A program made the translations under genes and the position numbers. A model generated the notes under the pieces. It was not told where the DNA came from and did not search any database. It saw nothing but the letters and a program-made list of their open reading frames with translations. From a virus: DNA of 58,366 nt. Shown piece by piece: positions 13,034-56,450 of this stretch. Every line of letters begins with the position of its first letter. Position 1 is the stretch's first letter. The DNA is taken from the UHGV virus genome UHGV-1376262; one strand, written 5' to 3'.

Positions 13034-13393
13034 TTAATAAGCCTTGTCAACATCTTGTCTAACTTTTTTACGAGGTAGACCAAGGCTTACGACACGTGAT
13101 TGGACTTGGGACTCTTTTAGTCCTAGGCATTTTCCAATCTCTTTATAAGACATATCCATGTAGTGATCTTCTACAAACTCGTCCATATCGAATGTCCACA
13201 CAGCTCTCCGTGAAGTCTCTTTTATAAGTCCTTTTTCACGGAATATACAAACTCTGTTCATTACGCTTGACAAGCTTCTCCCTAAGATTTCTGCAATCTC
13301 TTTAAAAGTCTTTCTGTCTGAACTTTCTACAAGCTCTATTAGTTGCTCGTCTTCATGCTGTGACCAAATCTTTTTACTATTTGCTGCTTTCAT
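13034..13393 (-). CDS. Small DNA-binding protein with two Myb/sigma-region-4-like HTH repeats.
   Basis: Two repeats of the form W..EDE.L..LV..........IA..LGRS...V..R. Confidence 0.4.
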   Translation of the reverse strand: MKAANSKKIWSQHEDEQLIELVESSDRKTFKEIAEILGRSLSSVMNRVCIFREKGLIKETSRRAVWTFDMDEFVEDHYMDMSYKEIGKCLGLKESQVQSRVVSLGLPRKKVRQDVDKAY

Positions 13394-13414
13394 TTGAGGC
13401 TTCCTTTCTGCTTG

Positions 13415-14362
13415 CTACTGAATATACCAAAGCTTCTTAGATACTAGTTTTGGTTCGCTTATTTTAAGTATTTGAGGCTTTCTTTGTTGAGTTGTTAGGA
13501 ACTGGTTTAAATCATAACCTTCTGGAAGATTCCATTTAAAGATTGTATGAGTCTTATCAAAAGCCTTTCTAATATCCCAAGCGGTTTCTTTACCTTTCTT
13601 ATCATTGTCAGTACCAATGATGATATTCTTTACTCCAAGCTTTTTGATAAGCTCTACTTGATTATCAATTAAGTTAGCTGCACCAAGACTTACTCCAACG
13701 TATCCCCAAGAGTATGCTGTCATAGCGTCTATCTCAGCTTCACAGATAACTATTGTGGAAGGCGATAACTCATACACTAAGTGCATTCCAAACAGCATGT
13801 TCTTAATATGGTTATTCCCAGACACATAATAAAAGTCTTTGGTATCCGTTCTACGGAACTTTAAGGCTTGACATACGCCCATTCCATTAATGTATGGGAG
13901 GACAATTGAACCATCTTTCTCAGAGGTTCTGTAGGCTTCCTGAACCTTTTCTGTAATGCCTCTTCCTAACAAGTATTTAGATACACTATGCTCAGGTATC
14001 TCAAAGCTATCTCTAGGCTTAGGAATAGATATTCCAACGCCCAAGGGAGGGGCTTCATAAGGTTTTACCCAAAACTCCTCCTTAAGCATTTCCAAAGCTG
14101 TATCATAGTCAGTATCATTGAGGCGTGCTACAAGGTCTATGAAGTTTCCTGATTCACCAGAGCCTGAGTCTCCCCACGTTCCTGCAAACTCATTGTTATA
14201 GTTTACAAAGAAGCTTGGGTGATTGTCTTCCCTGAAAGGAGAGGCTGCTATTAAACGCTCTTCATTCCACTTCTCATGCTCCCACTCATAGTTGCTTTCA
14301 AGGTATTCTTGAATGTCTAGGTGGATTTGAATATCCTTTGTTAAATAAACCTTATCTAACAC
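13415..14362 (-). CDS. Toprim-domain DNA primase.
   Basis: Toprim motifs ICEAEIDAMT and IIGTDNDKKG. Confidence 0.6.
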   Translation of the reverse strand: MLDKVYLTKDIQIHLDIQEYLESNYEWEHEKWNEERLIAASPFREDNHPSFFVNYNNEFAGTWGDSGSGESGNFIDLVARLNDTDYDTALEMLKEEFWVKPYEAPPLGVGISIPKPRDSFEIPEHSVSKYLLGRGITEKVQEAYRTSEKDGSIVLPYINGMGVCQALKFRRTDTKDFYYVSGNNHIKNMLFGMHLVYELSPSTIVICEAEIDAMTAYSWGYVGVSLGAANLIDNQVELIKKLGVKNIIIGTDNDKKGKETAWDIRKAFDKTHTIFKWNLPEGYDLNQFLTTQQRKPQILKISEPKLVSKKLWYIQ

Positions 14363-41405: not shown

Positions 41406-42008
41406 CTAGTAATTTGTCAGAAACTCCAAATCTTCGCCCAAGTCTTCCTCAGATTCATTAAAGTCGCCCTCTTCAATTACTTCTACTTCCTCTATTACTT
41501 CTGCCTCTTTAGGTTCTTCAACGGCGTCCGTAATATCCACAATGATGTTAAACTCTTGGTTAACCTGTGTGTCAGGCATTAGAAGTTCATGGAATTTAGC
41601 TAGAGAGTTTAAAGCGCTGATTTGAGTGTTTACGTCAATACGTTTATCAATAACATCGCCTTTTGGAGTAACCACTTGGTCATAAGCGTTTCTCTCAGCA
41701 ATCTCTGTAAAGCGTTCCAAAACTTCTGTCGGAGACATGATTTTAGCCTCTGACTTCTCGTTCATGATCCATTTCATATAAGCCTTAACATCATCACGCT
41801 TCAACAAGCGCCAACCAGTGGATTCATTATAACCCACAGAGCGGCATGCTTCTGCGTTATTCATCGTACTCATATAGTGTTTTATATAGCGTTTCATCTT
41901 AGGTCTTAAAGTTGTCAAGTCAACGCCATCGTATTGGTCTGGTTCGTTAACCTCTGAGATATACTTCTCATGTCGGTTTCCTACTTCTCTTTTTCCAATC
42001 TTTACCAA
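41406..42008 (-). CDS. terS: Terminase small subunit.
   Basis: N-terminal HTH (AEACRSVGYNESTGWRLLKRDDV) and an acidic C-terminus. Sits at the head of the late operon. Confidence 0.7.
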   Translation of the reverse strand: MVKIGKREVGNRHEKYISEVNEPDQYDGVDLTTLRPKMKRYIKHYMSTMNNAEACRSVGYNESTGWRLLKRDDVKAYMKWIMNEKSEAKIMSPTEVLERFTEIAERNAYDQVVTPKGDVIDKRIDVNTQISALNSLAKFHELLMPDTQVNQEFNIIVDITDAVEEPKEAEVIEEVEVIEEGDFNESEEDLGEDLEFLTNY

Positions 42009-47067: not shown

Positions 47068-47074
47068 ACAGGGC

Positions 47075-47096
47075 GCCTTGACAGGGCGTCTTTTTT
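47075..47096 (+). terminator. Weak putative terminator.
   Basis: gggCGCCttgacagGGCGtctttttt. Only a 4 bp stem, so confidence is low. Confidence 0.3.
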
Positions 47097-47279
47097 GTGC
47101 TACAATTAAGAAAACTAAAATAGGAGACGTGAGAAGCTTGATCAAACAGATTAAAAGAATGCTTGGCAAAATGCTTAGCTCAAATGATTTAGTTACAGCT
47201 TAATAAGAGGCGCCATGTTTTGTTGTTGATGGAGTGTATAAAGCTTTATCTCAACAGGTTGGAGGGATAGGCTGCCGAA

Positions 47280-47600
47280 GACGTTTGCCGATCGCTTTGC
47301 CAAACGCTTTATAGGAGATTTTCAGAAAAAATAAATCGCAACGCCTATAATACCGTTTTGGCAAAAACTTTGAGAGGTCAATAGTCGGCGCCGCCCCCTC
47401 AAAATTTTTTGAGACCCCCTGCCCTTCCCAAGGCATGCCACCGCCTTCGCCAAGCGTTTGCGATTCGCTTCGAGTTTCGCTCCCAAGCGTTGCCGATTCG
47501 CTTCGAGTTTGCGTTCGCCGAGTGCTTCGCCGAGTGCTTCGAGCGTTTGCCAAAGGCTTTGCGAGTTGCTTCATCGATTCCACAATTCCACAAGCTCAAT
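47280..47600. repeat. GC-rich tandem/direct repeat island.
   Basis: A 33-nt unit CAAGCGTT(T)GC(C)GATTCGCTTCGAGTTT... occurs twice. A 12-nt unit GCCGAGTGCTTC occurs twice. A TTTGCCAAAGGCTTTGCGAG-like motif occurs three times. The ORFs called here translate as low-complexity sequence. Confidence 0.6.
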
Positions 47601-47699
47601 CTACTTTGGATAATACGTATTATGTTAACTAGCCGATTACATGGCTTTCTATAATGCCGTTTCTTTACATGTTTGCACGTGCTTCACTGTTAAGCTTAT

Positions 47700-47800
47700 C
47701 TCAAAGCCTCTCACAGACTCACTCACAACACACACCGAAGCAGTCACAACCTCACTCACATCAGCACTCACGACACCTAACACCATACAAGCCACTGAGA
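47700..47800. other. Strand-asymmetric A+C-only tract containing CTCACTCACA-type repeats.
   Basis: ctcacagactcactcacaacacacaccgaagcagtcacaacctcactcacatcagcactcacgacacc is almost free of T and G. Confidence 0.55.
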
Positions 47801-48147
47801 AGCGATTGACAAGGCTTTAAACTCTCCATTACATTTCATATTAAAGCGTTCCGAATAGCGTTCTAAGAACGGATAACGGCGCCTGTATAAACGCCCTCAA
47901 GAAAGGGGCTTCCGAAACATAGACACCCATTAGAAAAATGATTCCAAAAATACGCCATTGCCTTTTATAAAATCCCTAGAATATCGCTATCCTTTCACGT
48001 TTAGAAAATCATTGCAAACACCTTTCTTTCTTGATGGATTGCAATAAGTTTTCAAGGCTTACTATTATCTTTTTAGAATGGTTGTTCATGGATTCCATGA
48101 AAGCATTGCACTAACTTTCAAAAGTTCGATCGAACTTTCATTTAAAA

Positions 48148-48175
48148 GCAAAAAAAGAAACGCTTTTCAGCGTTC
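48148..48175 (-). terminator. Rho-independent terminator for the early battery.
   Basis: Reverse complement AACGCTgaaaAGCGTT followed by TCTTTTTTTGCTTTT. Confidence 0.55.
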
Positions 48176-48520
48176 CTACTTAAAAATCTTATTGTATTCT
48201 TTTGTTAATTCCTTGTCGCTTTGCTCGTTACGTTCCTGAAAAATAAGTTTCATTGTTGCGGGTACTTCTTTCATAGCTTTTTTAACAGTCCAATATTGAC
48301 GAGCTAGCAAAATGTCTTTTGTATTACTTTCTTCTTCCGTTTTATTTAAGCTTTTTTCTAGTGCTTCGATTCGCTCATTGTTAGAAACATTTTTATAATT
48401 TTCTTGTGAAAGTTTTAAAGTAGTAAATCCAAGCGCCGTTGCTAGAATGATAACCAAAGCTGTTAATAAAGCGATAATGTTTTTTTGTCCTTTTAAAGTT
48501 CCGTTGTTTTCTTTTCTCAT
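48176..48520 (-). CDS. Early protein with an N-terminal transmembrane helix and a C-terminal coiled coil.
   Basis: ORF track. Confidence 0.5.
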   Translation of the reverse strand: MRKENNGTLKGQKNIIALLTALVIILATALGFTTLKLSQENYKNVSNNERIEALEKSLNKTEEESNTKDILLARQYWTVKKAMKEVPATMKLIFQERNEQSDKELTKEYNKIFK

Positions 48521-48702: not shown

Positions 48703-48739
48703 TTTTAAAATTCCTCCCGAGTTGTTTTATTATACTTTT

Positions 48740-48782
48740 ATTATAATGCTTGTAAATGTTTTTGTCAATAACTTTTTAAAAT
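48740..48782 (-). promoter_or_regulatory. Early promoter: AATTTTAAAAAGTTATTGACA, 17 nt spacer, TATAAT.
   Basis: Reverse complement is an exact consensus. Confidence 0.65.
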
Positions 48783-49000
48783 TCTAATGTGTCGATAGTG
48801 TTTGAAAAAACTTCCTCTATTTCTTCCGCTTCCTTTTCTGTGATAGCACCAATGTCTTGTAAATCGTTGAAAAGGTCGACTAGTGTATTGCTTACACCTG
48901 CTGTATAGTCGGCTAGCTCCTCTTTCGTCCAACCGTTCTCCTTACGTTCTAAGATACCTTTGTAACCGTCATTAAGTTGTTTGATGATAATTTTTTTCAT
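48776..49000 (-). CDS. Early small acidic protein. Start refined to MKKIIIKQ.
   Basis: ORF track 48776..49042. The track's N-terminal extension translates the promoter. Confidence 0.5.
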   Translation of the reverse strand: MKKIIIKQLNDGYKGILERKENGWTKEELADYTAGVSNTLVDLFNDLQDIGAITEKEAEEIEEVFSNTIDTLEF

Positions 49001-49032
49001 TTTCTTTCTTCCTCCCTTTTCCTTATGCCTTA

Positions 49033-49075
49033 ATAATAGCATGTTATAATAAACTTGTCAAGTATTTTTATAAAT
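49033..49075 (-). promoter_or_regulatory. Early promoter: TTGACA, 17 nt spacer, TATTAT.
   Basis: Reverse complement reads aaaatacTTGACAagtttattataacatgcTATTAT. Confidence 0.6.
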
Positions 49076-49085
49076 ATTTTTTTGA

Positions 49086-50010: not shown

Positions 50011-50044
50011 GTTAAAACGCCTCTTTCTTTTATTTTATGTGTTT

Positions 50045-50092
50045 ATTATAATGCTTTTTTAAATGCTTGTCAATAACTTTTTATAAATTTTT
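50045..50092 (-). promoter_or_regulatory. Early promoter: TTGACA, 17 nt spacer, TATAAT, with the AAAAAGTTATTGACA upstream element.
   Basis: tgtcaa at 50068-50073 and attata at 50045-50050 on the plus strand. Confidence 0.6.
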
Positions 50093-50377: not shown

Positions 50378-50397
50378 TTGTTGACCTCCTTAAGCCC

Positions 50398-50440
50398 ATA
50401 TTATCATGTTATAATAAACTTGTCAATTACTTTTTATCAT
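50398..50440 (-). promoter_or_regulatory. Early promoter: TTGACA, 17 nt spacer, TAATAT.
   Basis: tgtcaa at 50421-50426. Confidence 0.55.
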
Positions 50441-50804
50441 TTTTTGGCATTCCATACATTAGAAAATGATGGATATTTCTAAAATCATTTTCAACGCTTA
50501 ATAAATCCATTCCGTGTTTATTGAAAAGGTTTAAAGTCTTTTCATAAGTTGCAAAAAATCTTTTATCCGTTGGTTTGCAAAAATTTTCTAAGTTGTTTAG
50601 TGTGCCATTTGAAATAACCATGCTTCTTTTTGAGTTATTAAGCGTTGCAAAAATACGTTTGCAACTTTTTAAAACGCTGTCCAATTGCCTTGTGTCGATC
50701 GATGAAAGGTTTTCTTTAGCTTTTAAGGCTTTCAACTCCCTTTTAAGGTCTGCATTTTCTTTTCTTAATTGTTCCGCTTCATACATCGATAAAACCACTA
50801 ACAA
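50427..50804 (-). CDS. Early coiled-coil protein.
   Basis: ORF track. Confidence 0.5.
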   Translation of the reverse strand: MLVVLSMYEAEQLRKENADLKRELKALKAKENLSSIDTRQLDSVLKSCKRIFATLNNSKRSMVISNGTLNNLENFCKPTDKRFFATYEKTLNLFNKHGMDLLSVENDFRNIHHFLMYGMPKNDKK

Positions 50805-51411: not shown

Positions 51412-51499
51412 TTTTTATCCTTCTTTCATATATTTTTAGTAGGCAGTTTATAAAGGAAGTACCTAGCCTTTTTTATGGTCGCTTGTTTCTTACAAGATT

Positions 51500-51545
51500 A
51501 ATATAACACTTTCAAAAATGATTGTCAACACTTTTTTAAAATTTA
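51500..51545 (-). promoter_or_regulatory. Early promoter: AAAAAGTGTTGACA, 17 nt spacer, TATATT.
   Basis: tgtcaa at 51523-51528. Confidence 0.55.
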
Positions 51546-51908
51546 TCTGTAGAAATATAATTCTTCATCAATTGCTAGTATTTCATGGCTTTCGAAAAAT
51601 GTTTCTATTAAATAATCGGGTGTGTTTAGTGCTTCTTCTTCATCGTTCCATAAATAGTCCATAATATCAAAATCTAAGATGGCGCCCCAAGCGCTTTGCC
51701 AAATGTTTTCAGTGGTTAGCTCTAGTGGTGAAATATTTCCAGATGTGGCATTTCCATAAAAGATTGAAAAATTGTTTATTTCATTTGTTTCTAGGTAGTC
51801 CGCTTTTTCGTCTTCTTCGTAAATATCTAAGCTTTTCCAGAACTGTTCCCAATCCTTAAAATATGTCACGTTGTTTCTTATGATTATTTCTTTTTCTATC
51901 AATTCCAT
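51543..51908 (-). CDS. Early, strongly acidic 121-aa protein.
   Basis: ORF track. Rich in Glu, Asp and aromatic residues. Confidence 0.5.
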   Translation of the reverse strand: MELIEKEIIIRNNVTYFKDWEQFWKSLDIYEEDEKADYLETNEINNFSIFYGNATSGNISPLELTTENIWQSAWGAILDFDIMDYLWNDEEEALNTPDYLIETFFESHEILAIDEELYFYR

Positions 51909-51934
51909 TTTTTAAACCTCTTTTCTTTTTGGTA

Positions 51935-51982
51935 TGTCCTTAATATAATACTTTTTAAATCCTTGTCAATAACTTTTTAAAT
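51935..51982 (-). promoter_or_regulatory. Early promoter: AAAAAGTTATTGACA, then TATATT.
   Basis: tgtcaa at 51964-51969. Confidence 0.55.
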
Positions 51983-52204: not shown

Positions 52205-52254
52205 TTTTTAAACCTCTTTCTTAAATTTATTTTTGTAACTCGTTGCTACGTCTT

Positions 52255-52312
52255 TAATATATCACTTTCAAAATTGCCTGTCAATAACTTTTTTACAACT
52301 TTTTAAAATTCC
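52255..52312 (-). promoter_or_regulatory. Early promoter: AATTTTAAAAAGTTGTAAAAAAGTTATTGACA, 17 nt spacer, TATATT.
   Basis: tgtcaa at 52279-52284. The upstream element is duplicated. Confidence 0.55.
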
Positions 52313-52685: not shown

Positions 52686-52844
52686 TTTTACACTTTTTAG
52701 GTGCATTATATAGAAGAAACACGAAAAAAGTTTTTTCGATTGGATTTTAAAAAAGAGTTTAGCTTAATTAGAATTGATCTAAAGTAGGTTTGAAAAACTT
52801 TTGATTTCCTCGTGTAACGTTTTACGTTAAATCTTCTAAAAACT

Positions 52845-53020
52845 GGGGGGGGGTAGTATAGTAGGGTACTGTAGTAGGTATGGTAAGGTGTACTATAGTA
52901 GCATATAGTAAGGCATGTACATAAGCATATAGCAAAAGCAATATAGAAATGTGTTGTGCATGCTGTATAAGAGGCATGTATGATCGCAGCATATGTAAAA
53001 GGCGTGAAAAAGGCGAAGGC
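52845..53020. repeat. A run of nine G followed by a degenerate GTA/TAGTA microsatellite. The plus strand here is C-poor.
   Basis: ggggggggg at 52845..52853, then tagtatagtagggtactgtagtaggtatggtaaggtgtactatagtagcatatagtaaggcatgtacataagcatatag... Confidence 0.6.
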
Positions 53021-53149
53021 AGCAATTTTTTGCGGTGTTTTTGGCTGCTTTGGTGGTAAGTTATGCAACAAGCTAACTGAAAAGCGCTCAGAATGCTCCT
53101 GTGACACACTCCATAACGGATTATAGCGCTATAATTAGCTGATAATCAG

Positions 53150-53340
53150 CGCTTCTTGAAAAAATTTTAAAAATATTTAGGAAAAATTTTTTGAAAATTA
53201 TCAGCTTTGGAAAAAATTTTTTAAAAATTTAGGGCTGGCTTTTAGAAAAAAGATTTTAAAAATATTAAAAAGACGTTCACAGGTTCTTTATAGAATGCCT
53301 GCAAACGCCTTGTTAACGTAGAAAATAAGAGTTAGAAAAA
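53150..53340. repeat. Five phased direct repeats of the form GAAAAAATTTTTTAAAAAT(T)TAG, i.e. A-tract/T-tract units.
   Basis: Copies at about 53157, 53180, 53208, 53244 and 53334, spaced roughly 25-35 nt apart. Confidence 0.55.
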
Positions 53341-53498: not shown

Positions 53499-54311
53499 TT
53501 ACTTGCCTTCTTTAACGACTGTGTTAGCTCCATTAGTAGTAACCCAACCGTGTTTTAATCGAGCTTGTGCTTCTGTGTATTTGATAAGCTCATCGGTAAC
53601 AGATTCTGAAACTTTCTTGTTAGAATTAGCTTCTGCTTCCGCCGCTTTTGTTTTCTTATAAGCCTCACTGTCAGCTTGTGTTTTAGCTGTTTCAGCGTCT
53701 AGCTTAGCTTTTTCGTTTTCTTGACCAGCACGGATAATAGCGTCAATTGATTTTTGAGTTTCTCCATCAACTTCTGGAACGCCCACCGTAACGTCTTCTA
53801 CTTCAAAGCCTTTAGCAGCTACAGCTTTGGAAAAATTGTTTAGTAAAGCTGCTTCAACATTTGTGGATTCACCTGAAAGAATATTTAAAAGGCTTTGCTT
53901 AGAATAAACTTCACGAGCTTCTTTTTGAAGCTTAGATTTTAACCAACCTTTTTCAATGTCTTCGCTAGTGATGTTACCAAATTCTTTGTACATTTTTGAA
54001 GCTTTAGTAGCGTCTACTTTATAATCATATTTAATGTCTACAGTAGTCTTTTTACCGTCGCTTGTAGAAACAGAAACATTTTTTGCAGTAACTGTTTGAA
54101 GGCGAATAGGGTATTGAGTAACCTTATCTAATCCAACAAACTTAACACCTTGTGTAAGGACTTCGTCACGAACGCCTCCATTCATGGAGTATCGAACACC
54201 TACATAACCGTTATCGATCTTCTCCAAAACTTTAAAAGCTGTTACAGTTCCTACTAATCCTAATACTAAAGCACCTACGCCAAAAGCAATTAATTTATTT
54301 TCGTTCTTCAT
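53499..54311 (-). CDS. SPFH/band-7 (prohibitin/HflC-like) membrane protein.
   Basis: An N-terminal transmembrane helix, an SPFH core (YVGVRYSMNGGVRDEVLTQGVKFVGLDKV...) and a C-terminal Ala/Glu/Lys-rich coiled coil. Confidence 0.6.
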   Translation of the reverse strand: MKNENKLIAFGVGALVLGLVGTVTAFKVLEKIDNGYVGVRYSMNGGVRDEVLTQGVKFVGLDKVTQYPIRLQTVTAKNVSVSTSDGKKTTVDIKYDYKVDATKASKMYKEFGNITSEDIEKGWLKSKLQKEAREVYSKQSLLNILSGESTNVEAALLNNFSKAVAAKGFEVEDVTVGVPEVDGETQKSIDAIIRAGQENEKAKLDAETAKTQADSEAYKKTKAAEAEANSNKKVSESVTDELIKYTEAQARLKHGWVTTNGANTVVKEGK

Positions 54312-55459: not shown

Positions 55460-55500
55460 TTTAATGTAAGCTTATTGTACCACTTTATTAATTGCTTGTC
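55460..55500 (-). promoter_or_regulatory. Sigma-A promoter: TTGACA, 17 nt spacer, TACAAT.
   Basis: Reverse complement reads gtgTTGACAagcaattaataaagtggTACAAT. It sits inside the 3' end of the ligase gene. Confidence 0.5.
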
Positions 55501-56450
55501 AACACATCTTGGTAACTTTCTTGGATTAATTCTTTAATATATTTTGCAATCTCTCCTGAGAAAGACTTTGTTAGTCCAATAAGTTCTTTTTCAGAGAATG
55601 TTGATCCAGTTTCTTTAATAAATTCGTTAGCAGCGTCTTTCTTAACTTCTAACATAATCTTTCCAATGCTTTTCTCAGTAAGTTCATAGTCGCCATGAGA
55701 ACATACGTTAGAGACACGCTGTTTAGTAATATATTTACTTAACTCGTTTAAAGTATTTATCTGCTCTGTAGTTAATTCTGGAGCTTTCTTACGAGGTTTA
55801 GAAGGCTTGTCTTTAACTTCTAAATACTTTTCAGTCTTATACTTGACTCCAAGAAAGTCTTGAGTAGTCTTCATTAGATAGCCTGCTAAAGGTTTTAGAA
55901 CAATCCCTTCTGAATATCCACCAAGGGCTGACTCTTCGCTTGGAGAAGTTTCTAGGGACTCTTTAAGGGTCTTTCCTAAAGTGTTGTAAGGAACAATCGA
56001 ATCGTTGTCGAATACATTTTTCCAAACGTTTATCCCACAAACTACTAATTCTCCATTTTTAAATTTAATGATTACATCAAACACTCTAAAGGCTTTTTTG
56101 CCTTCTTTAATAATATCATAATCCATGTGCTGAACGCCTTTTCCAAAGAACTCTCCAAATACATAGATAGTATCGGCGTCAGGATAGTAGTCAAAAAGCT
56201 TTTTAGCTCCTTGGCGAATGTCTGGAGTAATGCAGTCTGGAAGAGTTGAAAATTGCTTATCATCATCAGCAATAATGCCGCTACGTTTTGCAAAATACTC
56301 TTCTCCATCAGCTGATAAAGCATAAGAAGCATTTGCTCCATGGATTTTCTCAGAAGCATACCATAACATGTTATCATATCTATTTACAAGGCGCTGAGAC
56401 TTTCCGATGGCGTAATGGTTGACTAGTGAAGGATACTTTAAAAATTCCAT
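55488..56450 (-). CDS. Rnl2-family RNA ligase (T4 gp24.1-like).
   Basis: Motif I EKIHGAN with a catalytic Lys. FGEFFGKGVQ parallels T4 Rnl2 FGEFAGPGIQ. GIVLKP parallels GYVLKP. N-terminal KYPSLVNHY parallels KYSSLENHY. Confidence 0.75.
   Translation of the reverse strand: MEFLKYPSLVNHYAIGKSQRLVNRYDNMLWYASEKIHGANASYALSADGEEYFAKRSGIIADDDKQFSTLPDCITPDIRQGAKKLFDYYPDADTIYVFGEFFGKGVQHMDYDIIKEGKKAFRVFDVIIKFKNGELVVCGINVWKNVFDNDSIVPYNTLGKTLKESLETSPSEESALGGYSEGIVLKPLAGYLMKTTQDFLGVKYKTEKYLEVKDKPSKPRKKAPELTTEQINTLNELSKYITKQRVSNVCSHGDYELTEKSIGKIMLEVKKDAANEFIKETGSTFSEKELIGLTKSFSGEIAKYIKELIQESYQDVLTSN

Follow-up and report, generated by a model that had tools for sequence, protein, structure and literature searches.

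What does a short, GC-rich and repeat-filled island do in an otherwise AT-rich phage genome, within a gap where two directions of transcription converge? The question is raised by positions 47280-47600 of the virus genome UHGV-1376262, which we analysed over its whole length of 58,366 nt (the window). A first-pass annotation made from the sequence alone had taken this island for a protein-binding array and had offered three options for it, namely, a replication origin with iterons, a pac/cos terminase recognition region, or a partition-like site. The comparison with related phages retains the terminase or genome-end option, by homology to the direct terminal repeat (DTR) of these relatives, but in the form of a short DTR instead of a pac or cos site. 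We consider it highly probable that the GC-rich island is the DTR region, or concatemer junction, of a linear phage chromosome. The predicted DTR (47384-47687) would bring the packaged genome to ~58,670 bp. On this reading, the gap is free of genes and appears convergent because transcription of each flanking gene block proceeds outward, to a physical end, and the window would hold a single DTR copy because the assembly merged two identical end copies. The convergence of transcription that had been pointed out would be a by-product of circularising a linear chromosome.

Fixed termini of Saphexavirus relatives map to the same locus

By blastn, the window groups with the Enterococcus Saphexavirus phages (SAP6, BC611, IME-EF1, and about 100 others), with which it shares only patches at 75-85% identity; compared with phage KEN17, its TerL is 71% identical and its TerS (41406-42008, minus strand) 60% identical. 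It is the complete genome of a divergent Saphexavirus relative, written as an arbitrarily opened circle. A 185-aa open reading frame (ORF) spans the end-to-start junction of the window, and a single tblastn high-scoring segment pair (HSP; residues 1-144) crosses this junction at about residue 96; therefore, the ends of the window are contiguous. This contiguity came from the protein-level search, blastn of the junction having given no match. The window itself has no terminal redundancy, as expected for a collapsed DTR; its contiguous ends and single copy fit a collapsed repeat and are no proof of one.

A search of a phage collection, with the corresponding SAP6 region as query, returned nine Saphexavirus records that start or stop within ~45 nt of one position, with two matching places each. 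Exact terminal redundancies are present in TV16 (340 bp), SE (343 bp), BC611 (341 bp), and fHoEfa06 (340 bp), and the boundaries are the same in all four, ...ggctgact/GTCGCGCGCC and ...ccttgtttag/TGTCAG in window orientation (the slash marks the boundary). Two of these records carry the repeat as an annotation: a left and a right direct repeat in TV16 (MN939408; 1-340 and 57788-58127) and a DTR in SE (PP583004; 1-343 and 57905-58247). The isolates were obtained in Italy, Russia, Japan, and Finland, which makes it implausible that they share one and the same error of assembly. The proposal that this location is a genome end is thus borne out in the relatives, where the same locus is the DTR, with fixed boundaries. 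Indeed, the locus is homologous: in the window, as in TV16 and SE, it lies between the small accessory-gene block, which includes a micro-ORF, and the 3' end of the early operon. The GC content is raised in both, reaching 0.56-0.59 in the DTRs of the relatives versus ~0.40 for their genomes.

Published data on the relatives agree with these records. When SE was mapped with restriction enzymes, its terminal fragments were equimolar and exceeded their calculated length by ~300 bp, which the authors read as a DTR of ~300 bp with fixed ends (PMC11510935), and PhageTerm returned "DTR (short)" for the Kenyan Saphexaviruses KEN03, KEN05, and KEN17 (PMC11465766). The short DTR of Saphexavirus is therefore already known, being annotated in GenBank (TV16 and SE) and supported by experiment (PMC11510935), and a DTR in this particular phage is new but predictable. 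It is only in the relatives that the termini were found to be fixed and non-permuted, with an exact repeat a few hundred base pairs long.

Other records and papers add little. The record ends of Pumpjack and KEN17, checked for a DTR, were opened arbitrarily at gene boundaries and are uninformative; the ZC1 record was opened inside the repeat and has no redundancy, and that of EF653P3 has only a 41-nt assembly overlap, beginning 6 nt inside the left boundary. The literature on IME-EF1 and another Saphexavirus genome paper hold nothing on termini, and a search for SAP6 together with terminal repeats found none. Hypothetical-protein coding sequences (CDS) have been called inside or across the DTR of relatives (TV16 MN939408, 132-347; SAP6, 13142-13462; BC611 ORF1 and ORF2; several CDS of KEN17). 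They are probably spurious, showing no protein-level conservation with the window.

Composition, repeats and coding content of the island

The jump to high GC that had drawn attention to the island was confirmed. Segment 47350-47599 has a GC content of 0.54, the maximum of all 250-nt segments (mean, 0.384; standard deviation, 0.043; z, 3.7); the same maximum is reached at 47341-47590, and 0.05% of the 250-nt segments in the 58,366 nt attain it. The 100-nt segments between 47350 and 47600 have GC contents of 0.54-0.58, and that of 47280-47600 overall is 0.508.

The repeats that had been noticed are likewise real. A repeat search found the 33-nt-spaced repeat as 47450-47477 versus 47483-47510 (26/28 identical), and Tandem Repeats Finder (TRF) returned 2.3 copies of the 12-nt unit TTCGCCGAGTGC at 47514-47541, 100% identical. 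The family of three TTTGCC-type motifs is present at 47282-47312, 47512-47542, and 47544-47574, with 68-74% identity, and the middle copy as originally placed (47354-47374) matches at 16/20 positions. Compared with shuffles, identity is raised at lags of 12 (z, 4.6) and 33 (z, 3.8); the repeat hexamers are enriched 10-90x in the island versus the rest of the genome. The repeats exceed 47280-47600, with one array beginning at ~47262 (array A below) and a CA-rich array at 47700-47790.

As had also been remarked, the ORFs over the island translate as low-complexity peptides rich in R, S, T, and A. A PHROG scan of six of the nine region ORFs gave no match, and tblastn of all nine gave matches only where the DNA itself is conserved, with no protein-level conservation in relatives. 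In contrast, the statement that the island lies 1.1 kb from any gene was mistaken: the gene-free gap is 1,108 nt wide (47068-48175), and the island begins ~210 nt past the last plus-strand ORF. A sign change of the GC skew, which had been suggested as a check, is present but coincides with the gene-strand switch, as it does at ~42 kb, and therefore carries no independent information.

The first-pass annotation had staked its reading on a terminus or origin signal at this point and on repeats shared with related phages. A terminus does map here in relatives, but the 33-nt and 12-nt units are absent from them. Although these units are absent, GC richness and an 11-12-nt periodicity are common to the window and its relatives.

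Anatomy of the predicted terminal repeat

The region was aligned by MAFFT between the window and 7 relatives and then 12 relatives (13 sequences). Since the window is only ~54% identical to the relatives over the region, conserved elements stand out. The alignment transfers the left boundary to 47383/47384 (aata/GTCGGCGCC) and the right boundary to 47687/47688 (cttcac/TGTTAAGC); GTCG at the left boundary and TGT at the right one are invariant in 13/13 sequences. The elements of the predicted DTR and its edges, in order, are as follows.

47262..47312, plus strand: array A, about four 12-nt units (GCTGCCGAAGAC GTTTGCCGATC GCTTTGCCAAAC GCTTTATAGGA) just left of the predicted DTR, holding the first TTTGCC motif
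47303..47358, plus strand: putative left boundary signal, ACGCTTTATAGGAGATTTTC...ATAAATCG followed by the box CTATAATACCGTTT; invariant columns of the 13-sequence alignment
47384..47687, no strand: predicted DTR, 304 bp, boundaries +/- 2 nt, GC 0.51, one copy in the collapsed assembly
47415..47431, plus strand: conserved GC block CCCCCTGCCCTTCCCAA, inside the repeat, nearly invariant in the window and 12 relatives
47440..47575, plus strand: array B, the 33-nt (x2) and 12-nt (x2.3) repeats, about eleven GCTTCG/GTTTGC-type units with 11-12-nt phasing, inside the DTR
47600..47635, plus strand: core TCTACTTTGGATAATACGTATTATGTTAACTAGC, 36 nt, candidate terminase recognition site
47649..47662, plus strand: putative right boundary box CTATAATGCCGTTT, inside the repeat, with its TATAAT (47650-47655) 32 nt before the right boundary
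47700..47790, plus strand: array C, CA-rich units phased at 12 nt (CACAGACTCACTCACAAC type), immediately to the right of the DTR

The window shares with the Saphexavirus DTR (TV16 and SE) the boundary nucleotides (/GTCG... and .../TGTYA), the two CTATAAT boxes 32-33 nt upstream of the boundaries, the 36-nt core, the CCCCCTGCCCTTCCCAA block, and the 11-12-nt periodicity. The box CTATAATRCCG has exactly two copies in the genome, at 47345 and 47649, directly oriented; the left one occupies 47345-47358, with its TATAAT at 47346-47351. The distance from the end of TATAAT to the boundary is 32-33 nt on the left and 32 nt on the right in 13/13 sequences, while the spacer sequences differ. The two boxes of the window are 304 nt apart, which is also the length predicted for its DTR. 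TATAAT is a perfect host -10 hexamer. Considered as ordinary promoters, the boxes were rejected: they have no acceptable -35 or TG extension and were not reported by the promoter scan.

The core is the only block with >=85% invariant columns across the 13 sequences and is unique in the genome. It holds a perfect 14-bp palindrome, ATAATACGTATTAT, at 47610-47623 and TCCACA-16-GATAAT, which weakly resembles a promoter. The minus strand of the core also contains, at 47605-47613, TTATCCAAA, which matches the DnaA-box consensus TTATCCACA at 8/9 positions, as a single copy outside any cluster. To judge from the alignment, the boundaries, boxes, and core are under purifying selection.

Patterns drawn from the core were also searched for more widely. 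A 14-nt pattern gave 120 matches in viral contigs, mostly chance ones, and a 32-nt degenerate pattern gave 8 loci in viral contigs, all in ordinary Saphexaviruses and none closer to the window, 0 matches in metagenome contigs, and 1 mislabelled record in genome contigs. Some labels of database records deserve caution. CP121461.1 ("Prescottella defluvii plasmid unnamed3"; 19,825 bp) holds Saphexavirus DNA, 83% identical to SAP6 over >2 kb, DTR core included; labelled as a plasmid of an actinobacterium, it is probably a contaminant or a mis-binned contig. The genomes deposited as "Escherichia phage vb_EcoB_G21-7" and "Enterobacter phage BHUENT5" belong to Saphexavirus as well, and their host labels are unlikely.

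The arrays differ more between lineages. In the window and in relatives alike, the 11-12-nt periodicity covers the DTR and its left flank (z of ~3-4), whereas the unit types are GCTTCG/GTTTGCC in the window versus TCGGA in the relatives. Array A, with a TRF period of 12 at 47284-47310 and a lag-12 z of 2.8, stands where the relatives carry a TCGGA-type array; the predicted DTR begins a little to the right of the first TTTGCC motif, in array A, and of the second (47354-47374). The unit sequences of array B are lineage specific, the relatives being GC-rich and periodic at lags 11-12 with other units. Array C has a lag-12 identity of 0.48-0.52, a GC skew of -0.6, and an AT skew of +0.47; it is a compositional mirror of array B and partly inverted to it. 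Since array C lies to the right of the DTR and array B inside it, the two stand on either side of the core, the right box, and the right cut. Unlike its relatives, the window has no ~30-nt TCGGACA array before the right box: the core-to-right-box distance is 49 nt in the window versus 80-82 nt in the relatives, and the DTR length, as predicted from the sequence, is 304 bp versus 340-343 bp.

A possible mechanism of end formation

We propose that the terminase, with a Terminase_2-type TerS and a Terminase_3-type TerL, would assemble on the core (47600-47635) and on the helically phased 11-12-nt arrays and that both ends would be cut at a fixed distance, 32-33 bp downstream of the two CTATAATRCCG boxes (47345 and 47649). 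As the boxes are directly oriented, both cuts would probably be made by complexes bound the same way round, unlike at the one symmetric cosN site of lambda. Since a concatemer junction has one DTR copy, the repeat must be duplicated. The junction copy may be doubled by nick-primed strand-displacement synthesis, as has been proposed for the T7 repeat, which is 160 bp long and is duplicated during concatemer processing. The high GC content may help exposed repeats to anneal as replicated genomes join into concatemers.

The geometry of the boxes suggests a molecular ruler, in which the terminase itself would read the box and cut at a measured distance; we advance this idea tentatively and give it somewhat less than an even chance. 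Alternatively, host sigma-A RNA polymerase bound or paused at the boxes might mark the cut positions for the terminase, which we find unlikely, the terminase-only ruler being considerably likelier. The host-polymerase version would be an analogue of the T7 concatemer processing that is coupled to an RNA polymerase pause, in a siphovirus with an SPP1-like terminase.

By its end structure, the packaging class is T7-type, and by the Pfam families of its machinery, it is SPP1-like. Pfam matches are PF04466 (TerL), PF03592 (TerS), and PF05133 (SPP1-like portal); TerL matches Terminase_3/Terminase_3C and, more weakly, Terminase_6N, and the family of TerS is Terminase_2. T7 and T3 resemble the system described here in their fixed ends, short exact end repeats, and one repeat copy per concatemer junction, in the promoter-like element near each cut, and in the replisome, which in the window is T7-like (Pol A, DnaB-like helicase, and primase) and encoded 14-25 kb from the island. 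Unlike T7 and T3, the phage is of the siphovirus type, its terminase and portal belong to SPP1-like families, and no phage RNA polymerase was seen in it; the near-cut elements are host-type -10 hexamers without a -35 instead of phage promoters. To our knowledge, a duplicated box equidistant from both boundaries is not a described T7 feature.

Contrary evidence and alternative explanations

Several points weigh against the identification of the island as a DTR region. The ends of this phage itself are predicted by homology only, and the roles proposed for the boxes, core, and arrays derive from conservation and geometry. The machinery alone does not predict a DTR, since PF04466, PF03592, and PF05133 are families that we take to be typical of SPP1-like headful packagers and not of T7. 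PhageTerm has returned "headful" for the Saphexaviruses fHoEfa01 and fHoEfa06 (PMC13227665); the record of the latter (PV296020) conflicts with this call, having an exact 340-bp redundancy at the canonical DTR boundaries at both record ends. Finally, in viable relatives, an HNH insertion separates array A from the cut site. This HNH homing-endonuclease gene (Entf1 MK800154, 685-1197; also in EF-P29 and SSsP-1) stands between array A and the conserved block of the left site, ~95 nt ahead of the left DTR boundary, and takes the separation of array and boundary to ~540 bp in Entf1. The insertion is evidently tolerated by the packaging signals, and therefore, array A need not adjoin the left cut.

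An iteron replication origin, in which the phased repeats would bind an initiator and the core or its palindrome would be the start, possibly alongside a role as DTR, is unlikely. As in the iteron origins of plasmids and phages, there are tandem direct repeats in non-coding DNA, here with helical phasing, and the invariant core offers the 8/9 DnaA-box match together with the perfect 14-bp palindrome. Unlike such origins, however, the island has no adjacent AT-rich unwinding region or initiator gene, being itself the GC-richest spot of the genome, and conservation among relatives extends to the terminal-repeat boundaries but not to the repeat units. Moreover, the replisome genes are 14-25 kb distant, the GC skew merely follows the gene strand, and DnaA boxes are unclustered, with one DnaA-like box here and 20 genome-wide versus 13.4 expected. 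The AT-rich repeat region at 52830-53260 is more origin-like.

In SPP1, the site pacL-pacC-pacR is bound by the Terminase_2-family protein G1P and receives one specific cut, after which headful cuts yield permuted genomes. A headful pac site of this kind, with one initiating cut at the island and later, sequence-independent cuts, has in its favor the SPP1-like families of TerS (Terminase_2; PF03592 as in SPP1), TerL (Terminase_3), and portal, the "headful" calls for fHoEfa01 and fHoEfa06, and the helically phased arrays B and C flanking the right cut, which resemble pacL and pacR. It is nonetheless very improbable in view of the relatives, which have two fixed cuts 340 bp apart: the same two boundaries recur in four independent records with redundancies of 340-343 bp, the terminal restriction fragments of SE are equimolar (PMC11510935), and PhageTerm reports a short DTR in three isolates (PMC11465766). 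Nor would a second boundary fixed at 32 nt from a duplicated box be expected of headful packaging. Lambda cos (cosQ-cosN-cosB), with symmetric nicks 12 nt apart in one site, is likewise a composite terminase site cut beside an array of small-subunit binding sites, for which the arrays here are candidates; unlike it, the locus would have two cut positions ~300 bp apart, each apparently set by a directly repeated box. Of all the explanations considered, we give least credence to a cos site with short single-stranded cohesive ends or a plasmid-like partition site. A non-coding position and repeats able to bind protein would suit either, but the relatives have exact double-stranded redundancies of 340-343 bp and not short overhangs, and the terminal fragments of SE are ~300 bp longer than the collapsed map predicts (PMC11510935). 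A partition site is not supported, although no systematic ParA/ParB search was made; it would have no obvious use, since the relatives are described as strictly lytic (PMC11465766).

It is quite improbable that the region serves transcription control or a non-coding RNA, with the boxes and core as promoters or operators or with the repeats as part of a structured RNA that starts from a promoter at 47078. This consensus promoter does point into the region, the two TATAAT hexamers are invariant, the core holds the promoter-like TCCACA-16-GATAAT, and the palindrome could serve a dimeric regulator. However, the only Rfam match at E<=1 is a weak one to an unrelated sRNA, outside the island, and the folding z-scores versus shuffles are ordinary (DTR as DNA, -0.87; promoter-proximal upstream RNA, -1.31). 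Unlike the boxes, the 47078 promoter and eight early promoters have the full consensus, and no other promoter has a copy of the palindrome or of the box.

Flanking and neighboring elements

The following elements were identified on either side of the island.

47070..47092, plus strand: terminator-like hairpin and T-run closing the plus-strand accessory block, a 10-pair stem with 5 G-C pairs, conserved in relatives
47078..47106, plus strand: sigma-70-type promoter TTGACA-17-TACAAT with a TG extension, 11/12 consensus matches, overlapping the terminator and pointing toward the terminal repeat
47129..47203, plus strand: micro-ORF of 24 codons (VRSLIKQIKRMLGKMLSSNDLVTA), from translation and nucleotide alignment, conserved in Saphexaviruses
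48156..48177, minus strand: terminator-like hairpin closing the minus-strand early operon

The promoter, the micro-ORF, and the terminators are all kept in relatives (alignments with 7 and 12 relatives), the promoter as TTGACA-17-TATAAT and the micro-ORF, in SAP6 and Pumpjack, as VVTSMLERIKGMLRKITSSNGLATA. The micro-ORF is the final coding element before the right physical end, driven by the 47078 promoter.

Farther into the early region, a ~60-nt repeat has eight copies (48722-48783, 49020-49079, 50020-50089, 50387-50445, 51498-51546, 51917-51979, 52243-52301, and 315-360). On the minus strand, it consists of an A/T-rich upstream stretch followed by TTGACA-17-(TG)TTATAAT, and the copies form a battery of near-identical consensus host-type promoters ahead of small early genes. 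The region at 52830-53260 is non-coding. A G8 run is present in it, as are TATAGTA-type tandem repeats at 52851-52946 (period, 12-24) and, at 53150-53260, several A/T repeats of the AAAAATTTT type; the GenBank records of IME198 and EfsWh-1 open near its counterpart, by rough coordinate mapping. Between the early genes and the replication module, the minus strand encodes an SPFH/Band-7 family protein (53499-54311) and a T4 Rnl2-type RNA ligase (55488-56450).

Significance for Saphexavirus packaging

Taken as the terminal repeat, 47384-47687 sets the true start and end of the genome, ~58.67 kb with the repeat counted twice. The DTR reading also explains the gene-free gap and corrects the annotation of the ORFs called inside the repeat in GenBank relatives. 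Our literature search found no account of the internal anatomy of the DTR, of a duplicated box with an invariant spacer, or of a conserved core, which is weak evidence of novelty. Saphexavirus phages are used in therapy, and very little work has been done on their packaging; the comparison yields a testable anatomy of end formation, comprising two boxes, an invariant 32-33 bp spacer, a 36-nt core, and phased arrays. The locus would be an ordinary feature of a known type unless the ruler model is true, in which case it would offer a simple system for short-DTR generation by an SPP1-like terminase.

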